Positions 6,571-60,477 of a stretch of 64,000 bases of DNA are shown here, one piece after another. A program made the translations under genes and the position numbers. Source of the DNA: an uncultured bacterium (lineage in GTDB: Bacteria; Elusimicrobiota; Elusimicrobia; Elusimicrobiales; Elusimicrobiaceae); contig CASEVY010000013.1 in assembly GCA_949291515.1 (NCBI GenBank), positions 16,389-80,388 on the forward strand, in the 5' to 3' direction. The notes under the pieces were generated by a model, which saw nothing but the letters and a program-made list of their open reading frames with translations, searched no databases and was not told the DNA's origin. The stretch's first letter is position 1, and every line of letters starts with the position of its first letter.

Positions 6571-6658
6571 ACATCTTATGGCGTTCTTCCTGATGACCCG
6601 CCATTGATTTTTACATTTTGACAAGCTATAACAAATATATAGCTAAAGGAGGGTCAAA

Positions 6659-7280: not shown

Positions 7281-7309
7281 AAAAAACCGGGATTAAACCC
7301 GGTTTTTTG
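7281..7309. terminator. Bidirectional hairpin terminator between convergent genes
   Basis: AAAAAA-CCGGG-attaaa-CCCGG-TTTTTT. Confidence 0.6.
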
Positions 7310-7410
7310 TATATATTGAAATCCCCGCCACAAGCGAAAGCTATTCGTCGTTAAAAATATTTCGGATTATATGCGGGCTTTAGGCTTTAAATCGGAAAGA
7401 ATATTTTAAA

Positions 7411-9261
7411 TCAAGAATTCATTATGCTTTCCAATTCCTCGGAAAGAGTCTCCCAGTCCTTTTCCGCGTCTGAAATTTCCTTATTGACAAAGGCCAGCTC
7501 TATACTAAGGGAAGAATCATAGCCCCTTATCAGGCGGTTTTCCAAATTTTCTTTCTGGGAAGATAATACTTCCAGCTTGCGCTCTATGGCTTTGATTTTG
7601 GTTCTTAAAGGCGCGGTCTGCGCGCGCAGTTTGGCGGCGTTTTTTCGTTTTTCTTTTCGGCTGTCCTCCCCCGCCTGAGCGTCTTCCTCGGCGGAAGAGC
7701 GCGAAGAATGAAGAACATAATTTTTGTAGTCTTCCAAATCGCCGTCGTAAGATTTAACCGTACCGCCCTCCACCAACAGCAGTCGGTCGCAGACCGATTC
7801 CAATATATGGAAATCGTGCGTTACCAATATCACCGCGCCGTCATATTCGTTTAAGGCCTCTATCAGAGCCCTGCGGCTGGTTATGTCCAGGTGGTTGGTG
7901 GGTTCGTCCAAAATCAAAATATTGGGCTTTTCTATCGTGATTAAAGAGAGCAAAAGGCGGCTCTTTTCCCCGCCCGAAAGTTTCCCTATTTGAGTATCGG
8001 CTTTATTCTTTTCCAAGCCAAAACACGCCAAATGGGTGTATACTTCCGTTTCTTTGGCTTCTGGCATAGCGGCTTTGGCCGTTTCGTAAGGAGTGGATTC
8101 CAAATCAAATTCTTCCGTCTGATGCTGGGCGAAATAACCCGCCTTCAGCTTGCGCGCGTAAGTAAGTTTGCCGCTCATGGCGTGTATTCTGCCGGCCAAA
8201 AGTTTGGCCAAAGTAGATTTGCCGTTGCCGTTTGCGCCCAAAAGCGCTATTTTATCGTCTTGAGTTACAGTCAAATTCAAATCTTTAAGCACCACTTTCT
8301 CGTCATAGCCGCAGCTGACGTTCTCCAAAGTGTACAAATACGCGTCCAAATGCTGAGGCTGAGGGAAAGTAAAACTTATGCTCTTTTCCAAAGGTATTTT
8401 GGGAGCCTCGCCCATACGTTCTATCATCTTTAAGCGGCTTTGAGCCTGCTTGGCTTTTGAGGCTTTATAGCGGAACCTGTCCACAAAAGACTGCAAATGC
8501 TTTTTGGTTTCCTCGTAGCGTTTGGCGTCTTTTATAAGCTGTTCGGTCTGAAGGTGGCGGGTGCGCTCGTAAGTGTCGTAATCGCCCGTATACGTTTTGA
8601 GTTTACACTCGTCTACAAGTATGATTTTGTCGCAGACTTTATTCAAAATATTCCTGTCGTGGCTGACTATCAAAAGCGTTTTATCAAGTTTGGACAGGCA
8701 GTTTTCCAGCCAAATAACCGTTTCCAAATCCAAGTGGTTGGTAGGCTCGTCGAGCAAAAGGCAGTCGCTCGGCGCAAACAACGCCGCGCCCAAGGCCGCC
8801 CGAACACGCCAGCCGCCGGAAAATTCCTTTAATGGGCGGCTAAGTTCCTCATTGCTAAACCCGAGCCCTCCAAGTATCGCCCCGGCGCGGGCCGCGGCGC
8901 TGTGCGCGCCTAAGCCGTCTAATTTATCGTATATCTCCGCCAGGCGCACGCCGGAAGGATTGGTTTCCAGCTCTTCATAGAGTTTTTTGAGGCGTTTGTC
9001 AGAATATAAAACGTGGTTCAATACGCTTTGGTTTATGTCGCTTATCTCCTGCTCCACCGTAGCCAAAACGGTGCCGCTTGATATGCTTATCCTGCCGCCG
9101 TCGGGGTAGAGTTTGCCCAATATCAGCTTGAACAATGTAGTCTTGCCGCAGCCGTTAAGCCCGACAAGCCCCACCTTCTGCCCTTTCCCTATAAAAGCGG
9201 AAGCGTCCTCAAAAATGGTCCTCTTGCCGATATGGTAGCTTAATTCCGATATTTCTATCAT
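7411..9261 (-). CDS. ABC-F family ATPase (translation-associated, no TM domain)
   Basis: Two ABC cassettes (GLNGCGKTT and GANGNGKST; two LSGG signatures), an inter-domain linker and a charged coiled-coil C-terminus. Confidence 0.85.
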   Translation of the reverse strand: MIEISELSYHIGKRTIFEDASAFIGKGQKVGLVGLNGCGKTTLFKLILGKLYPDGGRISISSGTVLATVEQEISDINQSVLNHVLYSDKRLKKLYEELETNPSGVRLAEIYDKLDGLGAHSAAARAGAILGGLGFSNEELSRPLKEFSGGWRVRAALGAALFAPSDCLLLDEPTNHLDLETVIWLENCLSKLDKTLLIVSHDRNILNKVCDKIILVDECKLKTYTGDYDTYERTRHLQTEQLIKDAKRYEETKKHLQSFVDRFRYKASKAKQAQSRLKMIERMGEAPKIPLEKSISFTFPQPQHLDAYLYTLENVSCGYDEKVVLKDLNLTVTQDDKIALLGANGNGKSTLAKLLAGRIHAMSGKLTYARKLKAGYFAQHQTEEFDLESTPYETAKAAMPEAKETEVYTHLACFGLEKNKADTQIGKLSGGEKSRLLLSLITIEKPNILILDEPTNHLDITSRRALIEALNEYDGAVILVTHDFHILESVCDRLLLVEGGTVKSYDGDLEDYKNYVLHSSRSSAEEDAQAGEDSRKEKRKNAAKLRAQTAPLRTKIKAIERKLEVLSSQKENLENRLIRGYDSSLSIELAFVNKEISDAEKDWETLSEELESIMNS

Positions 9262-16841: not shown

Positions 16842-19800
16842 TTAGTTTGGAAGAGGATTGTTTAAATCCGTCGTAGGAGGTTCGTCACCTTTGTCTTTGC
16901 CGCCTTTTATCTTATCCTTGTACAAGCCCACCACATAGTCCGAAGCCTCTTTGAATTCCTGTTTGATAAATTTATATAAAGTGGAATTATCCAACATTTT
17001 ATTCGTCGCTATCATACTTGCCACCAGCATCGCCAGCGACGCCATTACCCTGGCGTAAGGAACGTTTAGCCAATCGTTCAAATACGTTATAGGCATTGAA
17101 AGCCCTACCGCTATAGGCATAGTAAAGCTCATTCCTTGCGATATTTGGCTTTGAAGTTCGGGGTGTTTCCTTATAATATACGCAAACATCTGCGAGAAGT
17201 AATTCCCCATACCTATACTGGCTATCACGCCGCCCGATACTATCAGGGACGGCAAATCGGCCATTATACCCGCCAATATGCCCGCCGTACCCAAACCGGA
17301 AAGCGAAGAATACGCCAAATAAGACGTACCCGAAGACATTCTGGTAGTAGTTATATTGCCAAGCAATCTGCCTATCATCAAAGAGCCGTATAACACGCCT
17401 ATTACCATTACGGTAGCCATATCGCCGTCGGGTATTATCTGATATAACGTAGAAGAAAACGCGCTGGATATCGAAAGCTCGTGCGCCGTCGCCAAAGACA
17501 TTCCCACCACTACACTCATAACGCTTTCTTTGTGCAGCATAATGTCGAAGACCTCTTTTATATCCTGCCAGTAGCTCTTTTTTTCCGTCTGTTTAGCGCT
17601 TTCGGCCGCTATCGCCGCGGCTTCGGTTTCGTCGCCCGCAGGCGCCATTTGATATACGTCATTCTTAATATGGTCTATTATTACATTATCCCTTAAATTA
17701 GTACGATGAACCCTATAACCCGCGTAGGCGCTGTATGCCGCATATAGCGGCAAAGATACGTCCCAGCCGAAATTAAAGTCCATACCAAAAGCACGCCCCG
17801 CATAGTTTAAAGCCGAAGGCGCCACCAAAAACGCAATCGTGCCTAAATTCTTGTTTATAAAGCTGCGGTTGTAAAATAATATGTCCTCCATCGAAAAATC
17901 GCTGCTGCTGGAAAACAAATTCTTGAACTTATCTATTAAAATATCTGTTGTAATCTTAAGCGCTTCGGAAAAGTTCTGCTCTTCCTTTTTCTTCTCTCTT
18001 GATATCGGCATCGCGCCCCTGTTCATATTTATCAGCGAGTTGCCCAAAACATTCCTTATGTTTATCGAAAAACCCAAAGCGAACAACGCCAAACCAAGCG
18101 AAATATTCCTAAGCAATGTCGGCTCCATTTCGTAAGAGTATCCGTAAAAACCGAATATTGCCGGCACCACCGCCGCCAGCATTGATATTACTATCGACAC
18201 TTTAAACATCGCCACTTCGCCGTATTTCTTTACCAAAGGATTTAACATCGGCGACAATAAACCCGGCAAATAGTTTACCACGTACATCAAGTTAGTCGCA
18301 AAAGCCTCGCTGACACCCAAAGATTCCGGCAATACCGGCCCCAATGTTTTGCCTAAACTGGGGTTAATGTAAAAACCTTCTTTGGTTATTACGTCCGCCT
18401 TATTGTAGTTTTGCATTACCTCTATGGGCAATACCTCTTTGGACTGCGCCAAAACTTTAAGTAAAATGCCGCGCTGATTTTTCGGTATTCTAACCACTAC
18501 GGAGGAACCCAAAGTCGTCGGCATTGCCGATTTATCCGACAGCACTCCCATGTTGCCAGAAGGCATTAATACCAGCTTGCCGCCTTGTTTTAGGAAATTG
18601 GCGTCGGTTATCACTTTTATCGGAAGTTCTTCACTCCCGTCGGCGCTATATAGCGGAACCGTAGCCGTTTTGGAAGGCTCTATCCCGTACTGCCAAAATT
18701 TTATAGTTATATTTTCTTTGGCGTCTTTAAGGGCTTGAGCGAATTTTAAAAGGCTCTTATTATCCGTCTTAAGCCGCAAGTAGAAGTTGGACATCGTCCT
18801 GGGCTTTTTGCCAAATTCCCTAAGCTCAGCGGTATTGTTGTTAAAGACTATATTCGTATAGCCGTTGGTTTCGAAATCCTCGTTGAAAGAAAGCGCCACC
18901 GGCAAAACCATATCGCGCCCCGCACCGTTCATAACGCTTACAGTATAACTCTTGCCTTCAAGGGTGGCGTCAAATCTGCGAAAACCCGCCGCCGCCATAG
19001 CTTCCGAAGAGGACGCTATATTCTCCCCGTTGACAAACATCGCCTTCCTGTTTATGGATATATAGTCATTCAAACCGCCGTCCAATTTAGGAGAAAACGA
19101 CGCGTTCCCCTCCTCTATATTGCGGTAGAACATTGATACCAAAGAATATTCACCGGCGTGCCTCAAGGCATTAAACACTATCACCAATTCCTGCCCGTCC
19201 GCCCCTTTTATGCGATAGGTAAGTTTTTCCGGGAAGCCGGCCTCTTCTACTACCGGGGCATACTCTCTCAATATAGAAGATAGGCTGAGCACATCTGCTT
19301 TAGTTATATACTTCTCGCCGTTATATTTGCGCCCGTCTTTTATTCTGTTTTCGGAGTGTTTGTATATTATCTTTACAAGACCGAAGTTGGAAAATGTCCC
19401 TCTAAGACGTTTAAGCTCCGGCCCCTGAACCACCAATTCGCCCTTCCTGTTCGTGGCCGCATGGCCGTGCAGGATCTTAAAAGTGATGCCGTCGACTTTT
19501 ATTTCCGCCATTACCTTGGAGCCTTTGCCCTTGGGATTGGCTTTAACTTCGTCCCAGGCATTTGAAAGGGCTTTCCCCTCAATTATTTTCTGCTGAGACG
19601 CCGAGCGTCTTTCCCGCTCTTGCGCATAATACGAACCCGTCCTGTATGTCGAGAACGACGAAGCCAAATGCGGTATGGCCGGTATTTCGTAGACATATTT
19701 GTCCGCGGAGAAACGCCCGGCTATATCTTTATATTCCTTGGGCCAAGCAAAACGCCAGCCGCCAAGTTCCGCCGCTTTGCGGCTCAATTCCAACGAGAAG

Positions 19801-22800
19801 TCGCTGCCGCCATAGAGCGCGAAGGCGCGAATGTCGGAATAGTCCGAAAATTTAACGCCGGAAGATTGCGCGTGGCCGGGATTTATATTAAGCAATTTTC
19901 TGTCAAAATAACCATACAAATCCCGGGTAAACATAAAACCCATTCCGACAGTTCCGGCCAATACATAACCAGCCTTTGAAACATTGCTCAAAAGTCCTTT
20001 AACGCTTAAACTGTTTACGAAATTGCCGCCTGGCAGCGGAACCCCGCCGAAAAATTCAAATATCTTCGGATCTATTACGTTTACCGGCTGAATTTTAGGC
20101 ATAGCCGGCATAAGCGGCATACTCGCGCTCCGCGCTCCAAAGCTAAACGTTTTGCCCAAAGACAAACCTTTCTCCGCGTTTAGAGCCAATTCCGTTCCCG
20201 CCTTTAATCCCCCGCCAAAAGCACCGACTTCCGGAACCGTCGTCGCTACGTTATAATTAAATATAAGAGCAGTGCCGAATACCGTCGCCCTGTTGTTAAT
20301 AAATCTAAGGAAATCCGCCGCGGGCTTCATCTTGTGCGCGGAAAGAAAATTGTAAAACTTGTTTACAGGCGTCTTATCAGAAGCGCCGCCAAAGAGTTTA
20401 AAACCTTTCGTATAATCGGGATTGTACGGACGGTTTATTCCTAAAGCCTCGGCTATGGTTACGCCTCTCTCGGTTTCAAGAGCGGCTATCCCCAAAGTGC
20501 CGTCGCCCGAAGGCGCCCAAAAATTCTGCCACGGCTTTAATACGTTCTTATTCCACCAGCCGGCGGCTTTGTAATCGGCCCTGGCAATATTCAATCTGTT
20601 AAGACTTGAGGAAAAAACTTCACCCGCCCTTAAATATCCGCGTTCGCCCGCCGTATACAAAGGAGCCGAAGGCTTTTGTTTTAGGGCGGAACCTAAAACT
20701 TCTGTCTCTTTGGCAAGAGCGCGCCCCTCGGCGTTCAGAGGACCTTCAGCCCTCAAAGCCTCCAATTTAGACAATTTCGAATTATATATATTTACGTTTG
20801 AATTATAATCTTTAACTTTCTGCAAATATGAAGCGTTTTTGCTTTCCACAGCCGAAGCGTGCGCTCTGGCTTTTTTAATCAAATCTATCTGCGCTTGCTT
20901 AGCTTTGTATTGAGCCGTAGCCAATTTGGCTTTCGCCGTTTGCCTCTGTGTAGGATTGGAACCGGTCCTGACCGCCATTACGGCTTTCTTGCGAGCGTCG
21001 TATAAAGACGCAAGCCGCTTATTGTTAAAGTAATTTTCCAATTTTATGGCCTGACGGCTCTCGTTTGTGCCCATTGCGGCAGCGGCCGCGCCTTTTACCT
21101 GTACAGAAGAGCTCTTTATCCTCCCGCTCAAGCGCAGCATATTGTTGCGAGCGGATACATATTTGCCCAGTTTGGCGTAATTGGCTTTAATATAGGCTAT
21201 CCTCTTGGCGTTATCGGCTATTCGTCCCGCCTTTACAGCAGTATATGTGGACTTGCTCAAAGCCAAAGCCTTCCCTCCCAGTTTTGCCAGGCCAACAGTT
21301 CCCCATATAAGCAGCAATATATCGCCGGCAAAAGCGGCTCTGTCCAAATAATCAAACCCGATATTGCGCCGCTTCCTCGCATCAAGGCGGGCCTGCGTTA
21401 TTACCGCACCGTTATTAAGTTTCCCTTTTATCGCGGGATATCTGGCAAGCAGATCCCTGTCTATATCGTATTCCTGTATAGCGGTTATATCGCCCAAAGT
21501 CAAATTGGCCAATTCTGCCGCCATATTCTGCGCCGCGGCAGACGTCAAACCGGATTTCCCGCTTATCAGAGCGCCAGCCAAAAACGGTTTTATTCCGCCT
21601 TGCAATCCTTTATCGGCTCCGTATTCTTTAAGTATGGCTAAAGATTCTTTCCCGCCGTCCTGCGCCAACAAAAGCGCGATATCGGTAAACGAATTGCCGT
21701 AAAGATATTCGCCGTTGTATTGCGTAAGAGAAGACGCCCCGCCCAAAAACCTGCCGCCGGCCGTACGCACTTTTGAAGAGTAAAAAGTCAAATTCAAATA
21801 TTGGCCCCAGCCGCCGCTTTCTTTTTCTTTTGCCGTATAACGGTTAAGTATTTCCCTTAAAGAAGCATAATTGCCCGCCGCCAACAATGCCGAAAAACCG
21901 TTGCTCAGTATCTGTCCGAAGCCTGCCCCCTTTTCCGAGGCATATATAACCCTTTTTACCGCTTTGGCATAACGCCCGCCGTCTTTGCCCGATACATAAG
22001 AGCCAATAACTATGGTGTCTATGATATCACTAAGCAGGAAAGCGGCGACTTTTTTTTCTTTCTTCCCGTCGGTAATACCAAGCTCGAGCGATTTTAAATT
22101 CTGTTTTTCCAAACGCGACACCGCATAATTGTATATTTTCCCTTTTTCCGATGCGGTTATTACAGCCTTTCCGCCTATCTTAAGGTTGACAATGTAGCGC
22201 AAAACGTTTGAAGACAAATTCTCCGCACCGACGGCTTCTATATACTTGCGCAGAATTTTGTAAGCCGCCGCGTCAACTTTGCTTTTGTTTGCCGCGCGCC
22301 AGGCGATTTCCTCTTTTGCCTCTCTTTTATACTCGGCATAGTACTCTTTAAGAGGGTATGCCTCTTTCAGCTTGGCAGCCGCGGCTGCTGCCGGGCTTTT
22401 ATACGGAATGGCGCTTTGCGAAGGATTGTTCTTAACATATTCTTCAGCCGCTTCCGCTATAATAGAATTGTAAATTTTCTCATACTCTTTTAAAGGCATT
22501 ACGGAAAGGCCAATAAATTGTGCCGCCAAATAGGACAACATATCATTTTCCAAAGACTTAATATTGTTTGCTCCGGCCCTCTTCACATACATCGGGGCCA
22601 TCAATCCGTATTTTGAGGCGCCAGTTTTCCTCAAAGCGGCTATTTTTAGGCGATTTTTATTTCCTTCCAAGGCCTTTAAAATCAAGTTAGTTTCTCTGTT
22701 AAGCGAGGATTCGTAGACATTCCCGTCTTCACCCTTAAAAAACAAATCTTCCAATTTGGCGTCGAAAGCGGCGGACTGTGAGGCGTCAATTTCCCCCCAA

Positions 22801-22928
22801 GCGACACCTTTGCCCCAAGATGGCAATCCCGCTTGCGCAAAAGCCGCCGTATTACATTCGAACAGAATAGCAAAAGACAAAACTGCCGAAATAATCTTTA
22901 CGCACCAAGAAGAAACTCTCTTTTTCAT
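16842..22928 (-). CDS. Giant (2,028 aa) signal-peptide protein with a C-terminal polytopic (MFS-like) membrane domain; function unknown
   Basis: Uninterrupted 6,087-nt ORF. Signal peptide MKKRVSSWCVKIISAVLSFAILFECNTAAFAQA. An Ala/Lys-rich coiled-coil-like stretch lies around aa 600-760, and scattered hydrophobic segments follow. The last ~600 aa contain about 11-12 hydrophobic helices split by a long charged loop. Confidence 0.8.
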   Translation of the reverse strand: MKKRVSSWCVKIISAVLSFAILFECNTAAFAQAGLPSWGKGVAWGEIDASQSAAFDAKLEDLFFKGEDGNVYESSLNRETNLILKALEGNKNRLKIAALRKTGASKYGLMAPMYVKRAGANNIKSLENDMLSYLAAQFIGLSVMPLKEYEKIYNSIIAEAAEEYVKNNPSQSAIPYKSPAAAAAAKLKEAYPLKEYYAEYKREAKEEIAWRAANKSKVDAAAYKILRKYIEAVGAENLSSNVLRYIVNLKIGGKAVITASEKGKIYNYAVSRLEKQNLKSLELGITDGKKEKKVAAFLLSDIIDTIVIGSYVSGKDGGRYAKAVKRVIYASEKGAGFGQILSNGFSALLAAGNYASLREILNRYTAKEKESGGWGQYLNLTFYSSKVRTAGGRFLGGASSLTQYNGEYLYGNSFTDIALLLAQDGGKESLAILKEYGADKGLQGGIKPFLAGALISGKSGLTSAAAQNMAAELANLTLGDITAIQEYDIDRDLLARYPAIKGKLNNGAVITQARLDARKRRNIGFDYLDRAAFAGDILLLIWGTVGLAKLGGKALALSKSTYTAVKAGRIADNAKRIAYIKANYAKLGKYVSARNNMLRLSGRIKSSSVQVKGAAAAAMGTNESRQAIKLENYFNNKRLASLYDARKKAVMAVRTGSNPTQRQTAKAKLATAQYKAKQAQIDLIKKARAHASAVESKNASYLQKVKDYNSNVNIYNSKLSKLEALRAEGPLNAEGRALAKETEVLGSALKQKPSAPLYTAGERGYLRAGEVFSSSLNRLNIARADYKAAGWWNKNVLKPWQNFWAPSGDGTLGIAALETERGVTIAEALGINRPYNPDYTKGFKLFGGASDKTPVNKFYNFLSAHKMKPAADFLRFINNRATVFGTALIFNYNVATTVPEVGAFGGGLKAGTELALNAEKGLSLGKTFSFGARSASMPLMPAMPKIQPVNVIDPKIFEFFGGVPLPGGNFVNSLSVKGLLSNVSKAGYVLAGTVGMGFMFTRDLYGYFDRKLLNINPGHAQSSGVKFSDYSDIRAFALYGGSDFSLELSRKAAELGGWRFAWPKEYKDIAGRFSADKYVYEIPAIPHLASSFSTYRTGSYYAQERERRSASQQKIIEGKALSNAWDEVKANPKGKGSKVMAEIKVDGITFKILHGHAATNRKGELVVQGPELKRLRGTFSNFGLVKIIYKHSENRIKDGRKYNGEKYITKADVLSLSSILREYAPVVEEAGFPEKLTYRIKGADGQELVIVFNALRHAGEYSLVSMFYRNIEEGNASFSPKLDGGLNDYISINRKAMFVNGENIASSSEAMAAAGFRRFDATLEGKSYTVSVMNGAGRDMVLPVALSFNEDFETNGYTNIVFNNNTAELREFGKKPRTMSNFYLRLKTDNKSLLKFAQALKDAKENITIKFWQYGIEPSKTATVPLYSADGSEELPIKVITDANFLKQGGKLVLMPSGNMGVLSDKSAMPTTLGSSVVVRIPKNQRGILLKVLAQSKEVLPIEVMQNYNKADVITKEGFYINPSLGKTLGPVLPESLGVSEAFATNLMYVVNYLPGLLSPMLNPLVKKYGEVAMFKVSIVISMLAAVVPAIFGFYGYSYEMEPTLLRNISLGLALFALGFSINIRNVLGNSLINMNRGAMPISREKKKEEQNFSEALKITTDILIDKFKNLFSSSSDFSMEDILFYNRSFINKNLGTIAFLVAPSALNYAGRAFGMDFNFGWDVSLPLYAAYSAYAGYRVHRTNLRDNVIIDHIKNDVYQMAPAGDETEAAAIAAESAKQTEKKSYWQDIKEVFDIMLHKESVMSVVVGMSLATAHELSISSAFSSTLYQIIPDGDMATVMVIGVLYGSLMIGRLLGNITTTRMSSGTSYLAYSSLSGLGTAGILAGIMADLPSLIVSGGVIASIGMGNYFSQMFAYIIRKHPELQSQISQGMSFTMPIAVGLSMPITYLNDWLNVPYARVMASLAMLVASMIATNKMLDNSTLYKFIKQEFKEASDYVVGLYKDKIKGGKDKGDEPPTTDLNNPLPN

Positions 22929-23256: not shown

Positions 23257-23326
23257 ATTTTATTTTTTTACGGCTTCTCCCTCAAGCCGATTTTAGGCCC
23301 ATTCTTAACTGGGTCTTAAGTCCTAC
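23257..23326 (-). promoter_or_regulatory. Composite promoter copy E (distal box + proximal box + TTGAGG-N17-TAAAAT)
   Basis: Gene orientation: AGGACTTAAGACCC-N10-GGGCCTAAAATCGGC-TTGAGG-N17-TAAAAT. The -35 is at 23280-23285 and the -10 at 23257-23262. Confidence 0.65.
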
Positions 23327-35806: not shown

Positions 35807-35891
35807 GGAGAGGTGTGTGAGTGGTTGAAACAGCAGGTCTCGAAAACCTGTGTACCGCAAGGTATCGAGGGTTCGAATCCCTCCCTCTCCG
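35807..35891 (+). tRNA. tRNA-Ser (anticodon CGA)
   Basis: Acceptor GGAGAGG/CCTCTCC, anticodon stem-loop CAGGT-CTCGAAA-ACCTG, long variable arm, and T-arm GAGGG-TTCGAAT-CCCTC. No encoded CCA. Confidence 0.9.
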
Positions 35892-40434: not shown

Positions 40435-41199
40435 TCAAATCCCCAAATCCGCGGAGTTGGTAAACAAAAACCTCAAGCTGTCCTTTTTGACGGTCTTGCT
40501 GAGAATTTTAGACAATTCGTCCATAGCCGCGTAAAATACCGGCATATCCTCAACTTCTATGGAAATGGTGGCGATATTAACCATATTCTTGGCTCGCGCA
40601 GAAGCTATGTAAGAACATGTATCCGTATCCAACGTGTTATACAGACATTGCGTGGAGTAGCGATAATATTCCCTCAGCAGAAGCTCCGAATGATGTTCGT
40701 CGTAATATATTCCCTGATACCGTTTGGGAAAAGCGCTGTTGGGCACTATTAATCTTACGACCCTAATTCTAGCCCAAAATTTTTCCCGCAATTTTACCAG
40801 CAGCTTATGAAACTCTTCCGCCTGCGTGCTTGTTCCGTAACCGGTGTCCAAAACCAATTTTTTATGCGGCATAGGCGTTTTTTTGAATTTGGCAAGTTTG
40901 CTCTGATATTCCGAATTCCCAGCCGCCTCTTTTACTTTTGAATCATATCTCTTAAGAAACGCCTCCACCCTTTTGGCGCTTTCTTCGGACATCTTTGCCT
41001 TACCCGATTGCTGTTGCGCATCTATAAATTTACTTTCAAGCACTTCCAAGAAATCGGCCCCTTTCTTTGAAACCGAAAAGTTTTCTACCGGGATTACGCC
41101 ACTGTCAAACGAAAACCCGACATTCAAATCCGTTCTGCTTTGCGCCTTTACTGGCATTGCCAACAAACATAAAACGACCGCCGTTATATAATACTTCAT
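40435..41199 (-). CDS. Secreted protein of unknown function (254 aa), driven by composite promoter D
   Basis: Signal peptide MKYYITAVVLCLLAMPVKAQS, RBS GAGGAGAGG, and no recognisable domain. Confidence 0.6.
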   Translation of the reverse strand: MKYYITAVVLCLLAMPVKAQSRTDLNVGFSFDSGVIPVENFSVSKKGADFLEVLESKFIDAQQQSGKAKMSEESAKRVEAFLKRYDSKVKEAAGNSEYQSKLAKFKKTPMPHKKLVLDTGYGTSTQAEEFHKLLVKLREKFWARIRVVRLIVPNSAFPKRYQGIYYDEHHSELLLREYYRYSTQCLYNTLDTDTCSYIASARAKNMVNIATISIEVEDMPVFYAAMDELSKILSKTVKKDSLRFLFTNSADLGI

Positions 41200-41249: not shown

Positions 41250-41317
41250 ATTTTAACACTGGCGGTTTTTCCCCACAAGGGACCTTGGACCTATTTTTAA
41301 ATAGGTCTTTTGACCTA
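41250..41317 (-). promoter_or_regulatory. Composite promoter copy D
   Basis: Gene orientation: AGGTCAAAAGACCT-N10-AGGTCCAAGGTCCC-TTGTGG-N17-TAAAAT. The -35 is at 41273-41278 and the -10 at 41250-41255. Confidence 0.65.
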
Positions 41318-41423
41318 AAAACCTTGCTTTAAAACTCAAAACGCCCCTTTTATGTGGCCGCTTTTGCAAAATTGCCGGCGCCGTTCGACATTATCGGCCT
41401 ATAAAATGTTAAAATATATATAT

Positions 41424-48797: not shown

Positions 48798-48868
48798 AGC
48801 GGGCGAAGGGAATCGAACCCTCGTCTAAAGCTTGGGAAGCTTCCGTTCTACCATTGAACCACGCCCGC
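48798..48868 (-). tRNA. tRNA-Gly (anticodon CCC)
   Basis: The reverse complement reads GCGGGCG..GTTCAATGGTAGAAC..GAAGC-TTCCCAA-GCTTT..GGGTTCGATTCCC..CGCCCGC-T. No encoded CCA. Confidence 0.9.
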
Positions 48869-52174: not shown

Positions 52175-53038
52175 ATGAAAAAGTATATCGTTTCTCTTGC
52201 GCTTTTTATAGCGGCTTATATAGCAGCTATGTATCTTACCCAAGAATATACCGATCTTAAACCTGCAGGTTCGGCACCGGCCCGATTGTCGGATTTCTTC
52301 GCCGCGTTAAAGCCGGAAAATAACGACTCCGATTTGGACCGCCTTACCCAAGAGGCCACCAAACGCCTTACCCCCCAGCAGGAAGAAGAACTTAGAATAA
52401 AACAAGAGCAAGAACGCCTTGCCCAAGAACAGGCCCGCGCAAAAGCGGAAGAAATAAGATTGGCCCAAGAAAGAAGAGATAAAATTTTCAAAGAGAAAGG
52501 ATTAATCAATATAGAATCTTTGCCGGCGAAACTTTTTTTGGATATTCGTTACGCTACGGAAAATAATTTTGCGGGCAAAAAGTTATATGCTTCGGATAAA
52601 TGTTATCTTCAGAAAGACACAGCAGACGCTCTGGTTAAAGCCGCACAATACGCCGCGCAGGAAGAAACGCCATTCTATCTTTGCTTATACGACTGCTACA
52701 GACCGCTTTCCGCACAACAAGCATTATGGGATATCCACCCGGTGCCTGGGCAAGTAGCCAATCCGAAAACCGGTTCCAACCACAACAGGGGTACCGCCGT
52801 AGATTTGGGCCCTTGCGATTATCAGGGTTACCCATTGGCAGCCCCAACTCCTTTTGACGACTTCTCCGAAAACGCTTACGCATACGCCAAAGAAGGTATC
52901 CCGCAAGAAGCCATAAGGAATCGTTCCGCCTTGCAGAAGGTTATGAGAAAGGCCGGCTTTACCACAATAAGAAAAGAATGGTGGCACTTTAATTACAAAA
53001 ACGCCAAAAATTATCCCATAGTGGATTTGGAATTTTAG
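52175..53038 (+). CDS. Membrane-anchored D-alanyl-D-alanine dipeptidase (M15D, VanX/DdpX-like)
   Basis: DIRYATENNFAGKKLY, SNHNRGTAVDL and EWWHF motifs. An N-terminal TM helix is followed by a Q/E/R-rich coiled segment. Confidence 0.8.
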   Translation: MKKYIVSLALFIAAYIAAMYLTQEYTDLKPAGSAPARLSDFFAALKPENNDSDLDRLTQEATKRLTPQQEEELRIKQEQERLAQEQARAKAEEIRLAQERRDKIFKEKGLINIESLPAKLFLDIRYATENNFAGKKLYASDKCYLQKDTADALVKAAQYAAQEETPFYLCLYDCYRPLSAQQALWDIHPVPGQVANPKTGSNHNRGTAVDLGPCDYQGYPLAAPTPFDDFSENAYAYAKEGIPQEAIRNRSALQKVMRKAGFTTIRKEWWHFNYKNAKNYPIVDLEF

Positions 53039-53101
53039 CCGATAACATATTTGTTCAACGGGGCATAATAGAAATTCGGTTTAAACTTTTCCGCAATCAT
53101 A

Positions 53102-53136
53102 AAGCGGTTCGCGAAAAAAGGCGAACCGCTTTTTTA
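53102..53136 (+). terminator. Hairpin terminator (may act on both convergent genes)
   Basis: AAGCGGTTCGC-(8 nt)-GCGAACCGCTT followed by TTTT. Confidence 0.7.
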
Positions 53137-53155: not shown

Positions 53156-54022
53156 TTATTTGTCTATTATCGGATTAAATTTGAAATCTTCAAATATATA
53201 TTCAGTAGTCCAATTGTTCTTAAACCAATTCTCGTCAAAAATTAAGTCTTTCCTTAAAGAACTGTCCAGTTCATCTTCCTTGATTGAGCGCGCCGCTTTT
53301 AATGCATAATCGGTAAATTCTTTATTTTCACTGGAAAGCACAAAATCCACCTGTTTCTTTAACAGTTTATACAATGTTTCGTCTTCGGCTATTACCGAGC
53401 AGACAATTTTTCTGTAAGGCATCAAATATGCGGATAAGGCAAAAGCCTCCGGGTGTTCGCGGGCGGTATCTGTCAAAATACGTTTTATTTCTATTCTGTC
53501 GGCCGATACCGGCACTTTATAACTATCATTATTGTAGGAACTAACAAGGTATTCTATCCCTATCGCAGCGGCGATAAATAATAGGGCGCCGCCCGTCTTT
53601 TTCATATAGCGGGTATTTCTCACTTTTTCCGCAAAGGCCCTGCGCACCTCACGCGGCTGACTCTTATAGATTATGTATTTTTTTATTTCGGAAAAATGCG
53701 TTTCGCCAAAATGCTTCCATTCTTTGCGCGGCATTTTAAGTTTTAGCCATTTGACGATATCCCCTTCCTTTTTAAGCATTCGTTTTTCAAAAAGATAATC
53801 GTCCAACACCAAATATAAGTATCCGCCCACCAGCAAACTCATCGCCGTTAGGCCCTTAGTATAAGAATTTTCTTTTTGTAAATCTTCAGGCAATTTGGAG
53901 AGCAAAACTTCAACGTCAGTTTCGGTAACCGTATTGTCTTGAGTGCGTATCCCCGCGGAATATGAAAAACCCGACAAAAAAATAATTATACCCACAAATA
54001 CTGCCGTTATTCTCTTCGACAT
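53156..54022 (-). CDS. Signal-peptide/two-TM protein of unknown function, paralog 1 (driven by composite promoter A)
   Basis: Start 54022 (MSKRITAVFVGIIIFLSGFSYSAG) follows a GAGGTG RBS. The ORF-track start at 54091 lies inside the -35 of the predicted promoter. The C-terminal region is homologous to the neighbouring gene. Confidence 0.65.
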   Translation of the reverse strand: MSKRITAVFVGIIIFLSGFSYSAGIRTQDNTVTETDVEVLLSKLPEDLQKENSYTKGLTAMSLLVGGYLYLVLDDYLFEKRMLKKEGDIVKWLKLKMPRKEWKHFGETHFSEIKKYIIYKSQPREVRRAFAEKVRNTRYMKKTGGALLFIAAAIGIEYLVSSYNNDSYKVPVSADRIEIKRILTDTAREHPEAFALSAYLMPYRKIVCSVIAEDETLYKLLKKQVDFVLSSENKEFTDYALKAARSIKEDELDSSLRKDLIFDENWFKNNWTTEYIFEDFKFNPIIDK

Positions 54023-54062
54023 ATGCGCACCTCGATGACAAATTTGAAACGTCGTTTCTTTT

Positions 54063-54130
54063 ATTTTATGAAAGGCTCCCTCTACATACAAGAGCCTTTC
54101 GCCCCATATTATTATGGGTCCTTAGACCCA
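54063..54130 (-). promoter_or_regulatory. Composite promoter copy A
   Basis: Gene orientation: GGGTCTAAGGACCC-N10-GGGGCGAAAGGCTC-TTGTAT-N17-TAAAAT. The -35 is at 54086-54091 and the -10 at 54063-54068. Confidence 0.65.
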
Positions 54131-54232
54131 CGCCCAATATCCGCAAAAAATTAGTTTCTCTTAATTCTCAAACCTTTATATTATTGCTTCAGAAACTTTT
54201 TCTCTTCCATAGAAAACCAATTTGCTAAAAGC

Positions 54233-54265
54233 AAAAAAAAGCGGGCTCTTTCAAGCCCGCTTTTT
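54233..54265 (-). terminator. Terminator of paralog 2
   Basis: Minus strand reads AGCGGGCTT-gaa-AGAGCCCGCT followed by TTTTTTTT. Confidence 0.75.
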
Positions 54266-54280
54266 ATCAGATCGTTTCTA

Positions 54281-55219
54281 TTATTCGCCCCAAGTCCAGG
54301 AAGGAGTAAAACCGCTGTCCACTCTCAAGCTGTCTACATACTCCGATTCCCTCATCGCGTCATCGGCCTCGAGGAAGGACTCCACATTCTCGCTTGAGAA
54401 CGCCTCTTCAACTTGCTGTTTTACGATTTTAAATATTTCCGGATTCTCGGCCAATATGCCATAGGCTACTTTCTGCTGATCTTCCGGCAAGCCGTATACG
54501 AACAGGGCCAAAGCGTCAATATCTTCTTCCATCATTTTCCTAATTTGGCGCTCCAAAACGAGGCGGTTATTGCTTATCGCCGTTTCTTCTTTGGTATTAT
54601 CGTAGAAAGCTACATAAGCTATCAAACCTACGGCTAAGCCCCATTTGCCCGCTCTTTTCGCTTTTATCCAAAATTTGCTGGTATTGCCGGTGACGGGTCT
54701 GGCCAAAAGCTGTTTGGCTCTTCTCATCTGATTGATGGCCTTATTGGCTGCAGCCCAATTGCCGGACATTGACGCGCCTACAGCTTTCCAGTAGTTTGCT
54801 CTGTTGATTGATTTGATTAAACCTTTATGACGCATCGCACTGTTCCATCTCGCCATTGCGGCGGCTTCTTTAGCCGCGGCATCTTTGATAGCGGCTTTTT
54901 GCAGGCCGGTAACCGCCTTCTTTTCTGCCGCTTTCATAAGAGCTTGATAAGCCATAGGATCCTGCGAAGCTACAAAATATTTACCCAATTCCGGGTTCTT
55001 TACTATCTTCTTTACAGAGTATGCCCAAGCGAGAAGCACCGCCGCGCCGCCGCCTATTATTACCCCTTTCGGCAAGCCTTTTTCCTTTTTGTCAATGCTA
55101 GACATATAAAGTTCTATTTCTTCGGCAGTCAATTCTTCTTCCGGTTGATATTGCGCATAGGCCAAGCCGGAAAAACATATATTCATTGAAATTAATGCGA
55201 CTAAAAACTTTTTCAACAT
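54281..55219 (-). CDS. Signal-peptide/two-TM protein of unknown function, paralog 2 (driven by composite promoter B)
   Basis: Signal peptide MLKKFLVALISMNICFSGLAYAQ and a GGAGG RBS. It shares the architecture and the C-terminal motif ..F(K/Y)K(I/L)(V/L)K(Q/K)QV(E/D)...SSEN.. with 53156-54022. Confidence 0.65.
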   Translation of the reverse strand: MLKKFLVALISMNICFSGLAYAQYQPEEELTAEEIELYMSSIDKKEKGLPKGVIIGGGAAVLLAWAYSVKKIVKNPELGKYFVASQDPMAYQALMKAAEKKAVTGLQKAAIKDAAAKEAAAMARWNSAMRHKGLIKSINRANYWKAVGASMSGNWAAANKAINQMRRAKQLLARPVTGNTSKFWIKAKRAGKWGLAVGLIAYVAFYDNTKEETAISNNRLVLERQIRKMMEEDIDALALFVYGLPEDQQKVAYGILAENPEIFKIVKQQVEEAFSSENVESFLEADDAMRESEYVDSLRVDSGFTPSWTWGE

Positions 55220-55254
55220 TGTTTCCTCCGTTAGATTTTAACTTCCTTACATAA

Positions 55255-55323
55255 ATTCTAAAAAACTATCCGCTTACCTGCAAGAGACTTTGGCCCCAAT
55301 CGCAAATGGGTCTTTAGTCCTAT
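55255..55323 (-). promoter_or_regulatory. Composite promoter copy B
   Basis: Gene orientation: AGGACTAAAGACCC-N10-GGGGCCAAAGTCTC-TTGCAG-N17-TAGAAT. The -35 is at 55278-55283 and the -10 at 55255-55260. Confidence 0.65.
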
Positions 55324-55358: not shown

Positions 55359-55667
55359 TTATTTGGTCGGCGTCGTATCGGTCGGCGCAGCAGGCGCGCT
55401 AGCCGGTATCTGTACGCTGTCAACGACCGAACTCATACCGCGTTTGGATACGTTTACCGTCAAGAATATCGAGGTAATCATTATCACCAACGCAACCGCC
55501 GCGGTAAGTTTTGTTATGAAGGTCGTAGCCGTAGGGCCAGCAAATACGCTGTCGCTGTTTGAGCTGCCGAATATCCCGGCCGCGGAACCCTTCCCGCTTT
55601 GCATCAATATCAGCATTATCAGCAATATGCACGCGACCCACTGCAATACTAAAGCTATTGTGTACAT
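55359..55667 (-). CDS. secG: Preprotein translocase subunit SecG
   Basis: LILMQSGKGSAAGIFGSS motif, two TM helices, and position after pgk. Confidence 0.85.
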   Translation of the reverse strand: MYTIALVLQWVACILLIMLILMQSGKGSAAGIFGSSNSDSVFAGPTATTFITKLTAAVALVIMITSIFLTVNVSKRGMSSVVDSVQIPASAPAAPTDTTPTK

Positions 55668-55686: not shown

Positions 55687-56889
55687 TTATTTTTTCAGCA
55701 ATGCCGTAAGGCCAGGTAACTCCTTGCCTTCCACAAATTCCATACTCGCGCCGCCGCCGGTGGAAGCGTGCGATACTTTTGAAGATGATATCTTCGCTTT
55801 CTTCAATACGTTCAGGCTGTCGCCGCCGCCGATTATCGTAATAGCGCCTTTCTCCGTCAATTTGACCAAGGTTTCCGCTATCGCGAAGCTGCCTTTGGCG
55901 TATGTCGGCATTTCAAATACGCCAACGGGGCCGTTCCAGAATATAGTCTTGCATTCGCTTAAGGCGTCTTCAAACAATTTAATCGTCTTAGGGCCGATGT
56001 CCAATCCCATAAAGCCTTCGGGAATGTTAGGGCTGTCCGTTACGACAGTTTCTACACCCTCTGCAAATTCTTTGGCCGCGATATTATCTACGGGCAGCAA
56101 AAGTTTTACGCCCTTTTCTTTCGCTTTGGCCATAATGCTCTTGGCCTCTTCTATCTTATCGGCTTCCAACAAGGAGTTGGATACATTGTAGCCCAAAGCC
56201 GTATTGAAAGTATAGGCCATACCGCCGCCGACTATCAAAACGTCTACCTTGTCCAAGAGGTTATTAAGAACCATTATCTTATCGGATACTTTCGCACCGC
56301 CGATTATCGCGGCGAACGGGCGGGCGGGATTTTCCAAAGCGCCGCCTAAAAATTCAACTTCCTTCTGGATTAAGAAACCGGCCGCGCTGGGCAAAAATTC
56401 GGTTATGGCGCTGGTAGAGGCATGGGCGCGGTGTACGGTGCCGAAGGCCTCTTGCACGAAGTAATCGCCGAGTTTAGCCAGCTTTTTGGCAAACTCTTTA
56501 TCGTTCTTTTCCTCTTCGGGGTGGAAGCGGAGGTTCTCAAGCAATACGATCTCGCCGTTCTTGGCGTTCTTTACCGCTTCTTCGGCGACTTCGCCTATGC
56601 AGTCGGACGCGAAATGTACTTTCACGCCCATAATTTTTTCAACTTCCGGGGCTACCGGCGCCAAAGAAAATTCGGGCGCCACCTTCCCTTTCGGTCTTCC
56701 CAAGTGAGCTATCAATACCAATTTGCAGCCTTTCCCTAAAAGATATTTTATCGTTTTTTCCGTCGCCGTAATGCGTTTGGGATTATCCACTTTTCCGTCC
56801 TTTAAAGGAACATTGTAATCCACTCTGACGACAACGGTTTTATTGTCTAAATTTACATCTTGTATTTTTACGATATCATTAAGGTTCAT
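55687..56889 (-). CDS. pgk: Phosphoglycerate kinase
   Basis: VRVDYNVPL, FLLENLRFHPEEE-like and IIGGGDS motifs. 400 aa. Confidence 0.95.
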   Translation of the reverse strand: MNLNDIVKIQDVNLDNKTVVVRVDYNVPLKDGKVDNPKRITATEKTIKYLLGKGCKLVLIAHLGRPKGKVAPEFSLAPVAPEVEKIMGVKVHFASDCIGEVAEEAVKNAKNGEIVLLENLRFHPEEEKNDKEFAKKLAKLGDYFVQEAFGTVHRAHASTSAITEFLPSAAGFLIQKEVEFLGGALENPARPFAAIIGGAKVSDKIMVLNNLLDKVDVLIVGGGMAYTFNTALGYNVSNSLLEADKIEEAKSIMAKAKEKGVKLLLPVDNIAAKEFAEGVETVVTDSPNIPEGFMGLDIGPKTIKLFEDALSECKTIFWNGPVGVFEMPTYAKGSFAIAETLVKLTEKGAITIIGGGDSLNVLKKAKISSSKVSHASTGGGASMEFVEGKELPGLTALLKK

Positions 56890-58204: not shown

Positions 58205-59206
58205 TTATAAAGCGGTATTGCCGTTTAAGTCTTTGGTAAGTTGTATTCCCCCGCCTTTTACGCTGTCTTTTATGAGTTTCGTAAAATCTGATGAAAATAA
58301 AGCGTACTTGTTAGTCTTCGTATATCCGATTACCTGGCTGTCGCTTACCGTCTTTATGCCGACCAGTATATTCTTGTTCGAAGACGCGCGGTGGAACAGC
58401 GGCTCGCCGAAATAGCTGCGTTCGACCTTGCCGTTTACCGTTAAAAATCCGCCTTTTACAGATTTTACGGTTTTACTCCCGCTTACGGGAGAGAAGAACA
58501 CCCTCTTTAAAAAGGCATCTTCCACCTTATCCTGCGGATCCATATTGGAAAGTATTACCGTACCGTAATTTGCTTTTACTCCGAAAGTAACCTTATCGGA
58601 ACCTACCGCCCACTCCCACAATCTTACGCACACATTGTCGGCCGTTGTACCTTTTTCCTGTAAACACAAATTGCTTATCTTTATCAAAGCGGCGCCGCTT
58701 CTGTGATCGATAAAAACTTTGGATATTTTACGCGCGTCAAACTGCAACACTCTGCCGTCCAGTTCCAGTTCCACGCTAAGAGGTTTAAATTCCACCAAAG
58801 CGCCGGGGGCATCATCACCCGTATATTCCATTCTGTCCACTCTCAAGCATTTTTCGTGAGTAAGCAGGTAATCTTTGTTTATCAGAGTGCCGTAGCAATG
58901 CGCGTCGAAAAAGCCCGCACCTTCGCCCCAAAGACCGTCTTGTTTGTAATTTAAATCTATTTTATAAGGGCGGCCGTCGGCATCATAATCTTCCACAAAC
59001 AAATCTCTCTTATATGTAGTGGTAAGTTTAAAGACCATAGGTTTATAATTATATTTATAGCTCTGACCCGCTACGGCGCTTTCTATTTTGCCGCCTATCT
59101 CATTATTTAAATCCTCATTTTCCATAAAGGAAGAGAAATCGGCGCTATAAGCCAGCCCGCCGAGCCAAAATAGAAACGTAAAGATTAATAATTTCTTTAT
59201 TGACAT
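58205..59206 (-). CDS. Secreted trypsin-fold (S1-like) protein lacking the catalytic triad, driven by composite promoter C
   Basis: Signal peptide MSIKKLLIFTFLFWLGGLAYSA. The segment CYGTLINKDYLLTHEKC aligns with the S1 motif CGGSLI..WVLTAAHC but has Lys at the His position. GAALIKI stands in for DIALIKL, and YFGEPLF for GDSGGPL. Confidence 0.55.
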   Translation of the reverse strand: MSIKKLLIFTFLFWLGGLAYSADFSSFMENEDLNNEIGGKIESAVAGQSYKYNYKPMVFKLTTTYKRDLFVEDYDADGRPYKIDLNYKQDGLWGEGAGFFDAHCYGTLINKDYLLTHEKCLRVDRMEYTGDDAPGALVEFKPLSVELELDGRVLQFDARKISKVFIDHRSGAALIKISNLCLQEKGTTADNVCVRLWEWAVGSDKVTFGVKANYGTVILSNMDPQDKVEDAFLKRVFFSPVSGSKTVKSVKGGFLTVNGKVERSYFGEPLFHRASSNKNILVGIKTVSDSQVIGYTKTNKYALFSSDFTKLIKDSVKGGGIQLTKDLNGNTAL

Positions 59207-59233: not shown

Positions 59234-59303
59234 ATTATAGTTATTCTCCCGCTCCCTTTACAAGAGAAAAAGGGCCCCCCTGACCTTAGGCCCTTAGACC
59301 TAT
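59234..59303 (-). promoter_or_regulatory. Composite promoter copy C
   Basis: Gene orientation: AGGTCTAAGGGCCT-N9-GGGGCCCTTTTTCTC-TTGTAA-N18-TATAAT. The -35 is at 59258-59263 and the -10 at 59234-59239. Confidence 0.65.
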
Positions 59304-59390: not shown

Positions 59391-60365
59391 TTAATACCTG
59401 CCGGCGGAACCCAAAACCTTCTCGTTCTTTTCTTTATACATAGCGATAAGGTCGGTTCTGGCGGGGCCCAAGTATTTGCGCGGATCGAACTCTGCCGGTT
59501 TTTCGGCAAAGACTTTCCTGATGGCGGCAGTCATTACCAATCTGCCGTCGGAATCGACGTTGATCTTGCATACCGCGCTCTTGGCCGCTTTTCTAAGCTG
59601 CTCTTCGGGCACGCCTACGGCATTTTCAAGTTTGCCGCCGTATTTATTTATCGTTTCAACGGCTTTCTGGTCTACGCTGGAAGCGCCGTGCAACACTATA
59701 GGGAAACCGGGAAGGCGTTTTTCCACTTCCGCCAAGATGTCAAATCTCAAAGGCGGAACGCTTTCGCCGGGTTTCACTTTAAATTTATAAGCGCCGTGGC
59801 TCGTGCCGATCGATATCGCCAAAGAATCTACACCCGTCCTCTTTACGAAATCCTCTACCTGAGCGGGATCGGTATAAGTGTGTTTTTCGGCGGAGACTTC
59901 GTCTTCGATACCGGCCAATACGCCGAGTTCGCCTTCTACGGTTACGTCAAATTGATGAGCGTAATCCACCACTTTTTTGGTCAAAGCGATATTTTCCTCG
60001 TAAGGAAGATGAGATCCGTCTATCATTACGGACGAGAAACCGGAATCGATACAGTCTTTGCACAGCTCAAAAGTATCGCCGTGGTCCAAATGGAGGGCGA
60101 CAGGTACCGGCTGGCCCATCTTTTTCATCATTTCGATAGCGCCGCGGCCCATCCAGCGGAGCAAAGTGGCGTCGGCATAATTTCTGGCGCCTTTGGATAC
60201 CTGTAAAATCACCGGCGAGCGCGATTCCGTGCAGGCCGTGATTATCGCCTGAAGCTGCTCCATATTGTTAAAGTTGTAAGCGGGTACGGCATAACCTTCT
60301 TTCATGGCTTTGGCGAACATATCTTTAGTGTTCACGAAGCCCAGTTCTTTATAAGAAACCGTCAT
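59391..60365 (-). CDS. fba: Class II fructose-1,6-bisphosphate aldolase
   Basis: ALHLDHG, GTSHGAYKF and VLHGASS motifs. Start 60365 follows a GGAGG RBS. Confidence 0.9.
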   Translation of the reverse strand: MTVSYKELGFVNTKDMFAKAMKEGYAVPAYNFNNMEQLQAIITACTESRSPVILQVSKGARNYADATLLRWMGRGAIEMMKKMGQPVPVALHLDHGDTFELCKDCIDSGFSSVMIDGSHLPYEENIALTKKVVDYAHQFDVTVEGELGVLAGIEDEVSAEKHTYTDPAQVEDFVKRTGVDSLAISIGTSHGAYKFKVKPGESVPPLRFDILAEVEKRLPGFPIVLHGASSVDQKAVETINKYGGKLENAVGVPEEQLRKAAKSAVCKINVDSDGRLVMTAAIRKVFAEKPAEFDPRKYLGPARTDLIAMYKEKNEKVLGSAGRY

Positions 60366-60477
60366 AAAAAATGCCTCCATAAGTTTTATTTCAATTCCAT
60401 TGTACTAATTTTGTTAAAATAAAGTAAACAAGGCGCCGAGCTTGGCGTTTTAATTTCTTGGCAATTATAGAGGTTTT

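Follow-up and report, generated by a model that had tools for sequence, protein, structure and literature searches.

The two genes described here, designated A and B, lie side by side on the minus strand of a 64,000-nucleotide (nt) stretch of contig CASEVY010000013.1, from an uncultured gut Elusimicrobium (family Elusimicrobiaceae); the whole of this stretch is hereafter called the window. They close a gene series that reads fba, an orphan gene for a 333-amino-acid (aa) protein, gap, pgk, secG, B, and A. Gene B (54281-55219) encodes 312 aa and gene A (53156-54022) encodes 288 aa from the ATG at 54022, both open reading frames (ORFs) having been verified at these coordinates; a longer TTG start for gene A, at 54091, is unlikely to be in use because it sits upstream of the −10 box of the gene. 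Each of the two genes is preceded by its own copy of a 43-nt element, and it is this element, together with the proteins themselves, that we examine below.

A Pair of Diverged Paralogs

The original prediction had described A and B as tandem paralogs of the same layout, devoid of any known domain, and this description stands. BLASTP aligns residues 153-266 of A with residues 196-308 of B at 55.8 bits (E = 1e-13, 31% identity, 56% positives), a significant similarity that covers the stretch quoted at the time and is confined to the C-terminal ~115 aa; by this alignment, A and B are true paralogs. A Kyte-Doolittle hydropathy and charge scan reproduces the layout, with a signal peptide, an acidic segment, a first transmembrane (TM) segment (TM1), a basic loop, a second TM segment (TM2), and a net-acidic helical C-terminal domain following one another in the same order in both proteins.

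The signal peptides (MLKKFLVALISMNICFSGLAYA↓Q in B and MSKRITAVFVGIIIFLSGFSYSA↓G in A) combine a basic n-region, a hydrophobic h-region, and an AxA-type site within ~25 residues; by hydropathy and inspection, the signal peptide of B covers residues 1-23 and ends AYA↓Q, the signal-like segment of A ends YSA↓G, and the pattern is kept in all 25 aligned family members. On these features, A and B are predicted to carry type I signal peptides and to be Sec-dependent exported or membrane proteins. In B, the acidic segment (residues 21-40) contains 6 D/E and no K/R, TM1 spans residues ~53-70, and the basic helical loop spans residues ~71-192, with 26 K/R against 7 D/E counted in 20-residue blocks over residues 61-200. 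TM2 of B (residues ~193-206) is short, at ~14-16 residues, and lies below the threshold of a 19-residue window; it is hydrophobic in 25/25 aligned members. The C-terminal part of B consists of a predicted five-helix domain followed by an aromatic tail, SWTWGE. The loop of A is shorter than that of B (residues ~75-143). The conserved C-terminal domain, which we place in the periplasm, maps to 54350-54601 on the minus strand in B (residues ~207-290), where it follows the pattern ISNNR...LALF.Y.LPE...VAYGILAENPEIF..VKQQVEEAFS.EN, and to 53273-53539 on the minus strand in A (residues ~162-250). The full-length AlphaFold2 model is all-helical, with a predicted local distance difference test score (pLDDT) of 69, and the C-terminal domain of B modelled alone gives five helices with a pLDDT of 78.

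Charge distribution and hydropathy agree with a two-pass hairpin, N-out/C-out, the TM2 of B being short, and this is probably the inner-membrane topology of both A and B. Once the Sec signal peptide is cleaved, the protein would thus sit in the inner membrane with a short acidic N-terminal helix and the five-helix C-terminal domain on the periplasmic side, and a basic helical domain of variable length on the cytoplasmic side.

Word-indexed searches returned 35 sequences related to B and 6 related to A, all of them from metagenomes or metagenome-assembled genomes (MAGs), and an exhaustive HMMER search of 1.84 billion representative proteins with a profile of both subfamilies gave 29 clusters at E ≤ 0.001; a profile search of a 5.8-billion-protein collection yielded no further family members. 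The organism-named loci all belong to uncultured Elusimicrobiales or Elusimicrobium MAGs, so that, as far as these sequence collections go, the family is restricted to Elusimicrobiota, with every organism-named locus in the Elusimicrobiales. Distant members are less than 20% identical to B, with an unchanged plan: they have a signal peptide, a short (T/S)xxEVEILL-type motif, TM1, a variable helical loop, and TM2, which is immediately followed by an ISNxR motif and by a helical domain of the form FALTA..L....VA.IIAE....Y..LK.Q.....S. Across the family, the loop ranges from ~65 to >200 residues, and the C-terminal tails are aromatic (NFSF, YSF, GWSY, WELGF, SWTWGE). Some distant members (L010, L011, L012, P0047, P0050, P0052, P0053, P0061, and P0064) carry extra cytoplasmic motifs, L(E/N)xH(A/S)xxI and (K)PRRPIGF, which A and B do not have.

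No Pfam or NCBIfam family matches A or B above its curated cut-off, and a scan of 25 family members gave scattered single weak family matches only. PHROGs and PADLOC gave nothing significant for A, B, or the 25 members (their matches at E = 0.002-0.006 lacked a qualifying stretch), the best profile hit among PDB sequences had E = 0.44 (full length) or E = 0.2 (C-terminal domain), and Foldseek reached at best E = 0.44 (full model) and 2.5 (C-terminal domain model) against PDB and E = 0.4 against BFVD, the Foldseek matches in both databases looking like generic helical-bundle noise. The family is thus unclassified, both by sequence and by predicted fold.

Promoters, Terminators, and the Upstream Element

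The core promoter of B (55255-55283, minus strand) consists of a −35 box TTGCAG (55283-55278), a 17-nt spacer, and a −10 box TAGAAT (55260-55255), with a Shine-Dalgarno (SD) sequence GGAGG at 55229-55225 on the minus strand; that of A (54063-54091, minus strand) consists of TTGTAT (54091-54086), a 17-nt spacer, and TAAAAT (54068-54063), with an SD sequence GAGGTG at 54033-54028 on the minus strand. With TTGnnn and TAnAAT boxes 17 nt apart (TTGnnn and TAnnnT at 16-18 nt being the usual pattern), upstream of an SD sequence and a start codon, both are sigma-70-type promoters by their sequence. One has to keep in mind that the −35 hexamers of B and A match at only 4/6 or 3/6 positions and that a generic promoter scanner for this reason listed neither promoter. 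In the alignment of family upstream regions, the −10 box is followed by an unstructured leader of ~30 nt with a GGAGG SD sequence.

The intrinsic terminator of secG (55353-55330, minus strand; 10 pairs and a T-run) lies immediately upstream of promoter B, which starts at 55323, ~6 nt past the stem, and B has an intrinsic terminator of its own at 54265-54236 on the minus strand (13 pairs and a T-run). Between gene A and the convergent ddpX, a hairpin at 53101-53135 has a good T-run on the plus strand (the ddpX side) and a weak one on the minus strand (the A side); it looks like one bidirectional terminator for A and ddpX. A composite promoter copy for each gene, the start of promoter B a few nt after the secG terminator, and a separate terminator for each gene had all been predicted: the first two are confirmed, and the third holds for B but only in part for A, whose downstream hairpin also belongs to ddpX. 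On this arrangement, A and B are most likely separate, monocistronic transcription units.

The element itself is a gapless block of 43 nt with two imperfect palindromes, of consensus GGnCTAAAGnCC (palindrome 1) and GGGnCnAAAGnCYCT (palindrome 2), placed directly upstream of the −35/−10 pair in a fixed register. In an alignment of family-gene upstream sequences, taken from nine genomes, it reads aTaGGnCtAAaGnCCtAt, 8 nt, TgGGgccAAAgnctCTTGnag, 17 nt, TA(g/a)AAT, again without gaps. Indeed, an alignment of 26 distinct instances stays gapless up to and including the −35 box; the core GG..C....G..C is invariant, and 17 or 18 nt separate the −35 box from TAnAAT. Counting the first T of TTG as −35, one finds the palindrome centres near −66 and −42. 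The element often adjoins the terminator of the preceding gene, and for this reason it would not be transcribed from its own side. The two promoters share the sequence GACCCAT-N7-TGGGGCNAAAGNCTCTTG, whose only two occurrences in the 64 kb are those at 55281-55312 and 54089-54120; none of 100 shuffles contained it.

We ran a position weight matrix (PWM) of the 43-nt element over the window and found five copies, each of them on the minus strand; in 20 shuffled versions of the window, the score never exceeded 0. The best copy is that of promoter B (55281-55323, score 64), with palindrome 1, ATAGGACTAAAGACCCAT, at 55323-55306 and palindrome 2, GGGGCCAAAGTCTCT, at 55297-55283 adjoining the −35 box, both on the minus strand; it is followed by that of promoter A (54089-54131, score 57), which reads GTGGGTCTAAGGACCCAT-N8-TGGGGCGAAAGGCTCTTG. 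A third copy (41276-41318, score 42) precedes the gene of an orphan 254-aa signal-peptide protein (40435-41199), and a fourth (59261-59303, score 18), with a variant palindrome 2, an 18-nt spacer, and TATAAT, precedes the gene of the orphan 333-aa protein (58205-59206), which also has a signal peptide. The fifth and weakest (23284-23326, score 16.5) lies ~330 nt upstream of the start of a 2028-aa protein (16842-22928, minus strand). This last protein has a signal peptide and a hydrophobic C-terminal third with multiple TM segments, and is otherwise an orphan, with only a sub-threshold match to MFS_1 (17 bits for a cut-off of 33).

Association of the Element with Putative Exported Proteins

Signal-peptide-like status was assigned by the same crude rule to element-bearing and other ORFs of the window: all five element-bearing ORFs qualify, versus 9/43 other gene-sized ORFs (p = 0.0012). 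For the three of these products that do not belong to the A/B family, Pfam gave nothing significant. When the metagenome collection was scanned by pattern, 37 loci came up, ~31 of which score as true copies, and 22 of the 24 distinct downstream ORFs are signal-peptide-like (p = 1.3e-8 versus the window background of 9/43); the two exceptions also show an early hydrophobic stretch. Six of the 24 are A/B family members, and among ten non-family ORFs that were scanned, nine have no Pfam match and one is an outer-membrane beta-barrel. A search for further paralogs, to be correlated with promoter-box hits, had been proposed. The element is kept before very distant family members (<20% identity) in L010, L011/L012, and L013; before some A-type genes, as detailed below, it is not. 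By sequence and by these counts, the element is strongly associated with predicted exported products and is common to unrelated genes.

Gene Neighbourhood, Age of the Duplication, and Selection

On the minus strand of the window, the neighbours of A and B include fba (59391-60380), the orphan 333-aa gene (58205-59206), pgk (55687-56889), and secG (55359-55667; PF03840, E = 2e-15); ddpX, a D-Ala-D-Ala dipeptidase gene, lies on the plus strand (52175-53038). Within the window, Rfam models reach gathering score at two places only, the tRNA genes at 48798-48868 (minus) and 35807-35891 (plus). The gap-pgk-secG series is directly followed by a family member in the related loci L001-L004 and L006-L010, with a copy number that varies from 1 to 4 per locus between genomes. 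L001 has B then A; L003 and L006 have four members, namely B, B2, A, and one more upstream of gap (in L003, which comes from a closely related species, the four family paralogs lie within 9 kb around fba-gap-pgk-secG, at 1007-1756, 6001-7017, 7288-8001, and 8239-9102, and L006 is arranged likewise); L009 and L010 have two family copies after secG; and L013 has a tandem family pair before the S10 operon.

The duplication that gave rise to A and B is not recent. A matches a distant A-type protein, P0046, over its full length (40% identity, E = 1e-52), and B matches P0046 over 67 residues only, from which it follows that the A/B split predates the divergence from the P0046 lineage; on these alignments, the two genes are anciently diverged.

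We then compared the genes of the window with their L001 orthologs, using amino acid identity and the ratio of nonsynonymous to synonymous substitution rates (dN/dS). The values are as follows: fba (100%, dN/dS 0.008), pgk (99%, 0.017), gap (98.8%, 0.023), secG (98%, 0.019), and acs (97.6%, 0.017); ddpX (92%, 0.043) and cca (87.6%, 0.047) come next, followed by the 333-aa protein (80%, 0.12), B (73%, 0.13), and A (61%, 0.18). A and B are therefore real genes under purifying selection, with a rate of evolution several times that of the housekeeping genes around them. In B, constraint is strongest on the periplasmic N-terminal segment and the C-terminal domain (dN/dS 0.05) and weakest on the TM segments and the loop (0.14-0.5). 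The contrast between PGK (99% identity) and B (73%) had suggested a hypervariable island or diversifying selection, a possibility that we rejected: the flanks are only ~83% identical at the nucleotide level and the dN/dS values of A and B are 0.13-0.18, which denotes fast evolution under purifying selection, with no gene-level positive selection. The cluster as a whole alternates very slow and fast genes, with fba, gap, and pgk proteins 99-100% identical to those of L001 for DNA that is only ~83% identical, and interspersed element-bearing genes that are 61-80% identical.

A separate observation concerns two B-type copies located ~80 kb apart on contig CAKUBV010000001.1 of one Hadza-derived MAG (L002, 5965-6960, and L005, 5965-7008). 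The promoter element, the first ~55 codons, and the last ~100 codons are near-identical between the two, and TM1, the loop, and TM2 have diverged, a pattern suggestive of gene conversion or a mosaic origin. Downstream of each copy come ~1.2 kb devoid of long ORFs and, beyond them, a Cys-rich secreted protein.

Interpretation and Alternative Explanations

As the same element precedes almost exclusively signal-peptide genes, we infer that A and B belong to a phylum-specific regulon of exported or envelope proteins. Its regulator would be a DNA-binding protein acting at the two palindromes upstream of a sigma-70-type promoter; centres near −66 and −42 lie where the sites of class I and class II activators are typically found, and the element would accordingly be read as the binding site of a putative transcription regulator at such positions. 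What the proteins do is a more speculative matter. The periplasmic parts are the most constrained, the TM and cytoplasmic parts diverge between paralogs, and one may conjecture that the family acts as transmembrane adaptors, whose periplasmic parts would dock on a common partner and whose divergent cytoplasmic helical domains would give paralog-specific functions; the mosaic pair of the Hadza-derived MAG, with its near-identical ends and divergent TM segments and loop, points the same way. We put at roughly 0.55 the probability of this explanation as a whole, i.e., an ancient family found only in Elusimicrobiota, expressed from separate promoters within an exported-protein regulon and working as transmembrane adaptors.

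Several points weigh against it. The activator model is based on position and conservation only, and one dimeric regulator would not easily suit both palindromes, whose centres measure 4 nt in one and 3 nt in the other; some A-type genes (L003, L006, L051), moreover, have only a degenerate element or none. The topology is drawn from hydropathy and the positive-inside rule only, the TM2 of B is short, and the full-length AlphaFold2 model is of moderate quality (pLDDT 69). The adaptor function is conjectural, structure and sequence searches having given no functional clue.

Going one step further, the element and its putative regulator could form a phylum-wide programme for the exported proteome, with A/B as its most constant member, usually beside secG, and as a membrane-embedded sensor or feedback part that couples it to the state of the envelope or of secretion; we regard this extension as improbable as it stands.

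It had been proposed that the duplication of A and B included the regulatory region, in which case a tandem duplication would have copied gene and promoter together and the shared element would be a mere relic, with no common regulation behind it. The two genes are indeed adjacent, the element precedes both, and their copies share lineage-specific details (GACCCAT, TGGGGC, and GTA after the −35 box). The same details, however, recur in the copy at 59261-59303 before the unrelated 333-aa gene, and the element stands in the same register before three unrelated genes of the window and many genes for exported proteins in metagenomes. The upstream regions of A and B, furthermore, differ in the −35/−10 spacer and the 5′ untranslated region (UTR), outside the regulon-wide consensus positions, so that only the motif positions are maintained, and the A/B split is older than the divergence from the P0046 lineage. 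Since the element precedes unrelated genes and spacer and 5′ UTR differ, its sharing speaks for common regulation and provides no evidence of co-duplication, and the proposal in its original form is not supported. The relic reading is doubtful; it is possible that gene and promoter were duplicated together long ago and that selection then kept the element. We give even less credit to the idea that the palindromes are transcribed and act as RNA hairpins (a leader, a riboregulator, or a processing site), which we consider very unlikely. The A copy does fold into two hairpins (−17.2 kcal/mol, z = −2.85) and the variants of palindrome 2 still allow G-U pairing in the sense strand (two pairs, 16/26), but the B copy folds differently (z = −1.0), the central pair 10-17 is unpaired in 11/26 instances, and column composition explains the pairing, with 78.1% of paired cells versus 76.6% in shuffled alignments and 37/500 shuffles reaching the observed value. 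The element also lies upstream of a conserved −35/−10 pair and adjoins upstream terminators, and no Rfam model matches it near gathering score; the hairpin reading was thus rejected on position and on the lack of covariation.

Two other explanations concern the factor that would read the element. The element and its TTG/TAnAAT boxes could together be the site of an alternative sigma factor for envelope genes, of the extracytoplasmic function (ECF) type or sigma-54; a regulon of exported proteins, as in sigma-E-type regulons, and a conserved sequence that runs into the −35 box would suit this view. The hexamers and their 17/18-nt spacing are nevertheless canonical for sigma-70 and unlike the GGAAC/CGTC of ECF factors. 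A sigma-54 promoter requires a GG and a GC doublet at a distance of exactly 10 nt (TGGCAC-N5-TTGC). In TGGGGC...TTGC, GG and TTGC stand 2 nt too far apart for this, and the GC doublet varies between instances (TTGAAG, TTGTAG). E. minutum, besides, is reported to have no sigma-54 (PMC3162934), and we rejected this variant on these three grounds. An alternative sigma factor of either type is on the whole quite unlikely; a specialised group 2/3 sigma factor at the element is possible. Alternatively, A and B could themselves have a regulatory role, as sensors or anti-regulators anchored in the membrane whose basic cytoplasmic domain would hold or release the element factor; they would then be autoregulated and form part of the core of the regulon. 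B-type genes carry the best-scoring and most constant element copies in every genome examined, and a periplasmic domain, TM segments, and a cytoplasmic helical domain resemble single- or two-pass signal transducers; there is also a weak, non-significant RskA_N match (E = 0.51). Against this, none of the anti-sigma or sensor families covered by the Pfam, NCBIfam, and PDB profile searches resembles A or B significantly, the family has no linked regulator gene, and both the copy number (1 to 4 per locus) and the loop length (~65 to >200 aa) vary. We hold such a role to be unlikely, and favour transmembrane adaptors expressed within an exported-protein regulon.

Significance

The searchable literature contains no description of the A/B family or of the 43-nt element; the protein family, the sequence of the element, and the phylum-wide tie of the element to predicted exported orphan proteins are new. 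Elusimicrobiota are poorly studied: few members have been cultured, and orphans make up most of the exported proteins. With a conserved and easily searched cis-element as a marker of exported and envelope genes, the surface and secretome biology of the phylum would become accessible genome-wide; the element could also serve as bait for finding the regulator and, in genetic tools, as a strong natural promoter. The A/B family, as a conserved and lineage-defining component that would reside in the inner membrane, is an obvious first target for the study of envelope building in these ultramicrobacteria. The wider impact is moderate, as no long-standing gap is filled outside the phylum. Lineages of this kind, besides, often have orphan envelope families.

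Comparison with Known Systems

At the protein level, the N-terminal domain of RskA (PF22618), which also belongs to a membrane-anchored helical protein, is the only Pfam model that came up for A; at 11 bits for a cut-off of 27 (E = 0.51 over 16 residues), the match is not significant, and we did not take it as a relationship. DUF948/YtxH (PF06103) shares Ala/Lys-rich helices beside a TM segment, and one distant family member of 25 has a weak DUF948 match in its cytoplasmic helical region (E = 2.3e-4). A and B, however, have no such match, and DUF948 has neither the periplasmic C-terminal domain nor the two-pass topology with a signal peptide.

At the level of the regulon, sigma-E, Cpx, and Rcs are the envelope regulons of Proteobacteria, in which exported and envelope proteins are expressed from promoters with one cis-signature. 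The set described here is likewise one of putative exported proteins under one shared cis-signature; it differs in promoter type, in having almost only orphans as members, and in having neither RseA or CpxP homologs nor a linked sigma factor or response-regulator gene.

A further parallel is with activator-dependent sigma-70 promoters that have tandem sites, such as those of CRP/FNR at −41.5 and −61.5 or beyond, or the OmpR boxes of porin promoters. As in these class I and class II promoters, two conserved sites are found at a fixed distance from the −35/−10 pair, the proximal one adjoining the −35 box (centre ~−42) and the distal one ~24.5 bp further upstream, and the element is common to a dispersed set of genes. 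The differences lie in the sites, since we know of no operator that matches GGnCTAAAGnCC / GGGnCnAAAGnCYCT and the palindromes here differ in internal spacing, and in the target set, which is defined by protein export and not by a metabolic theme. The apparent regulatory logic, a dispersed regulon with upstream operators at a sigma-70 promoter, is nonetheless of a familiar kind.

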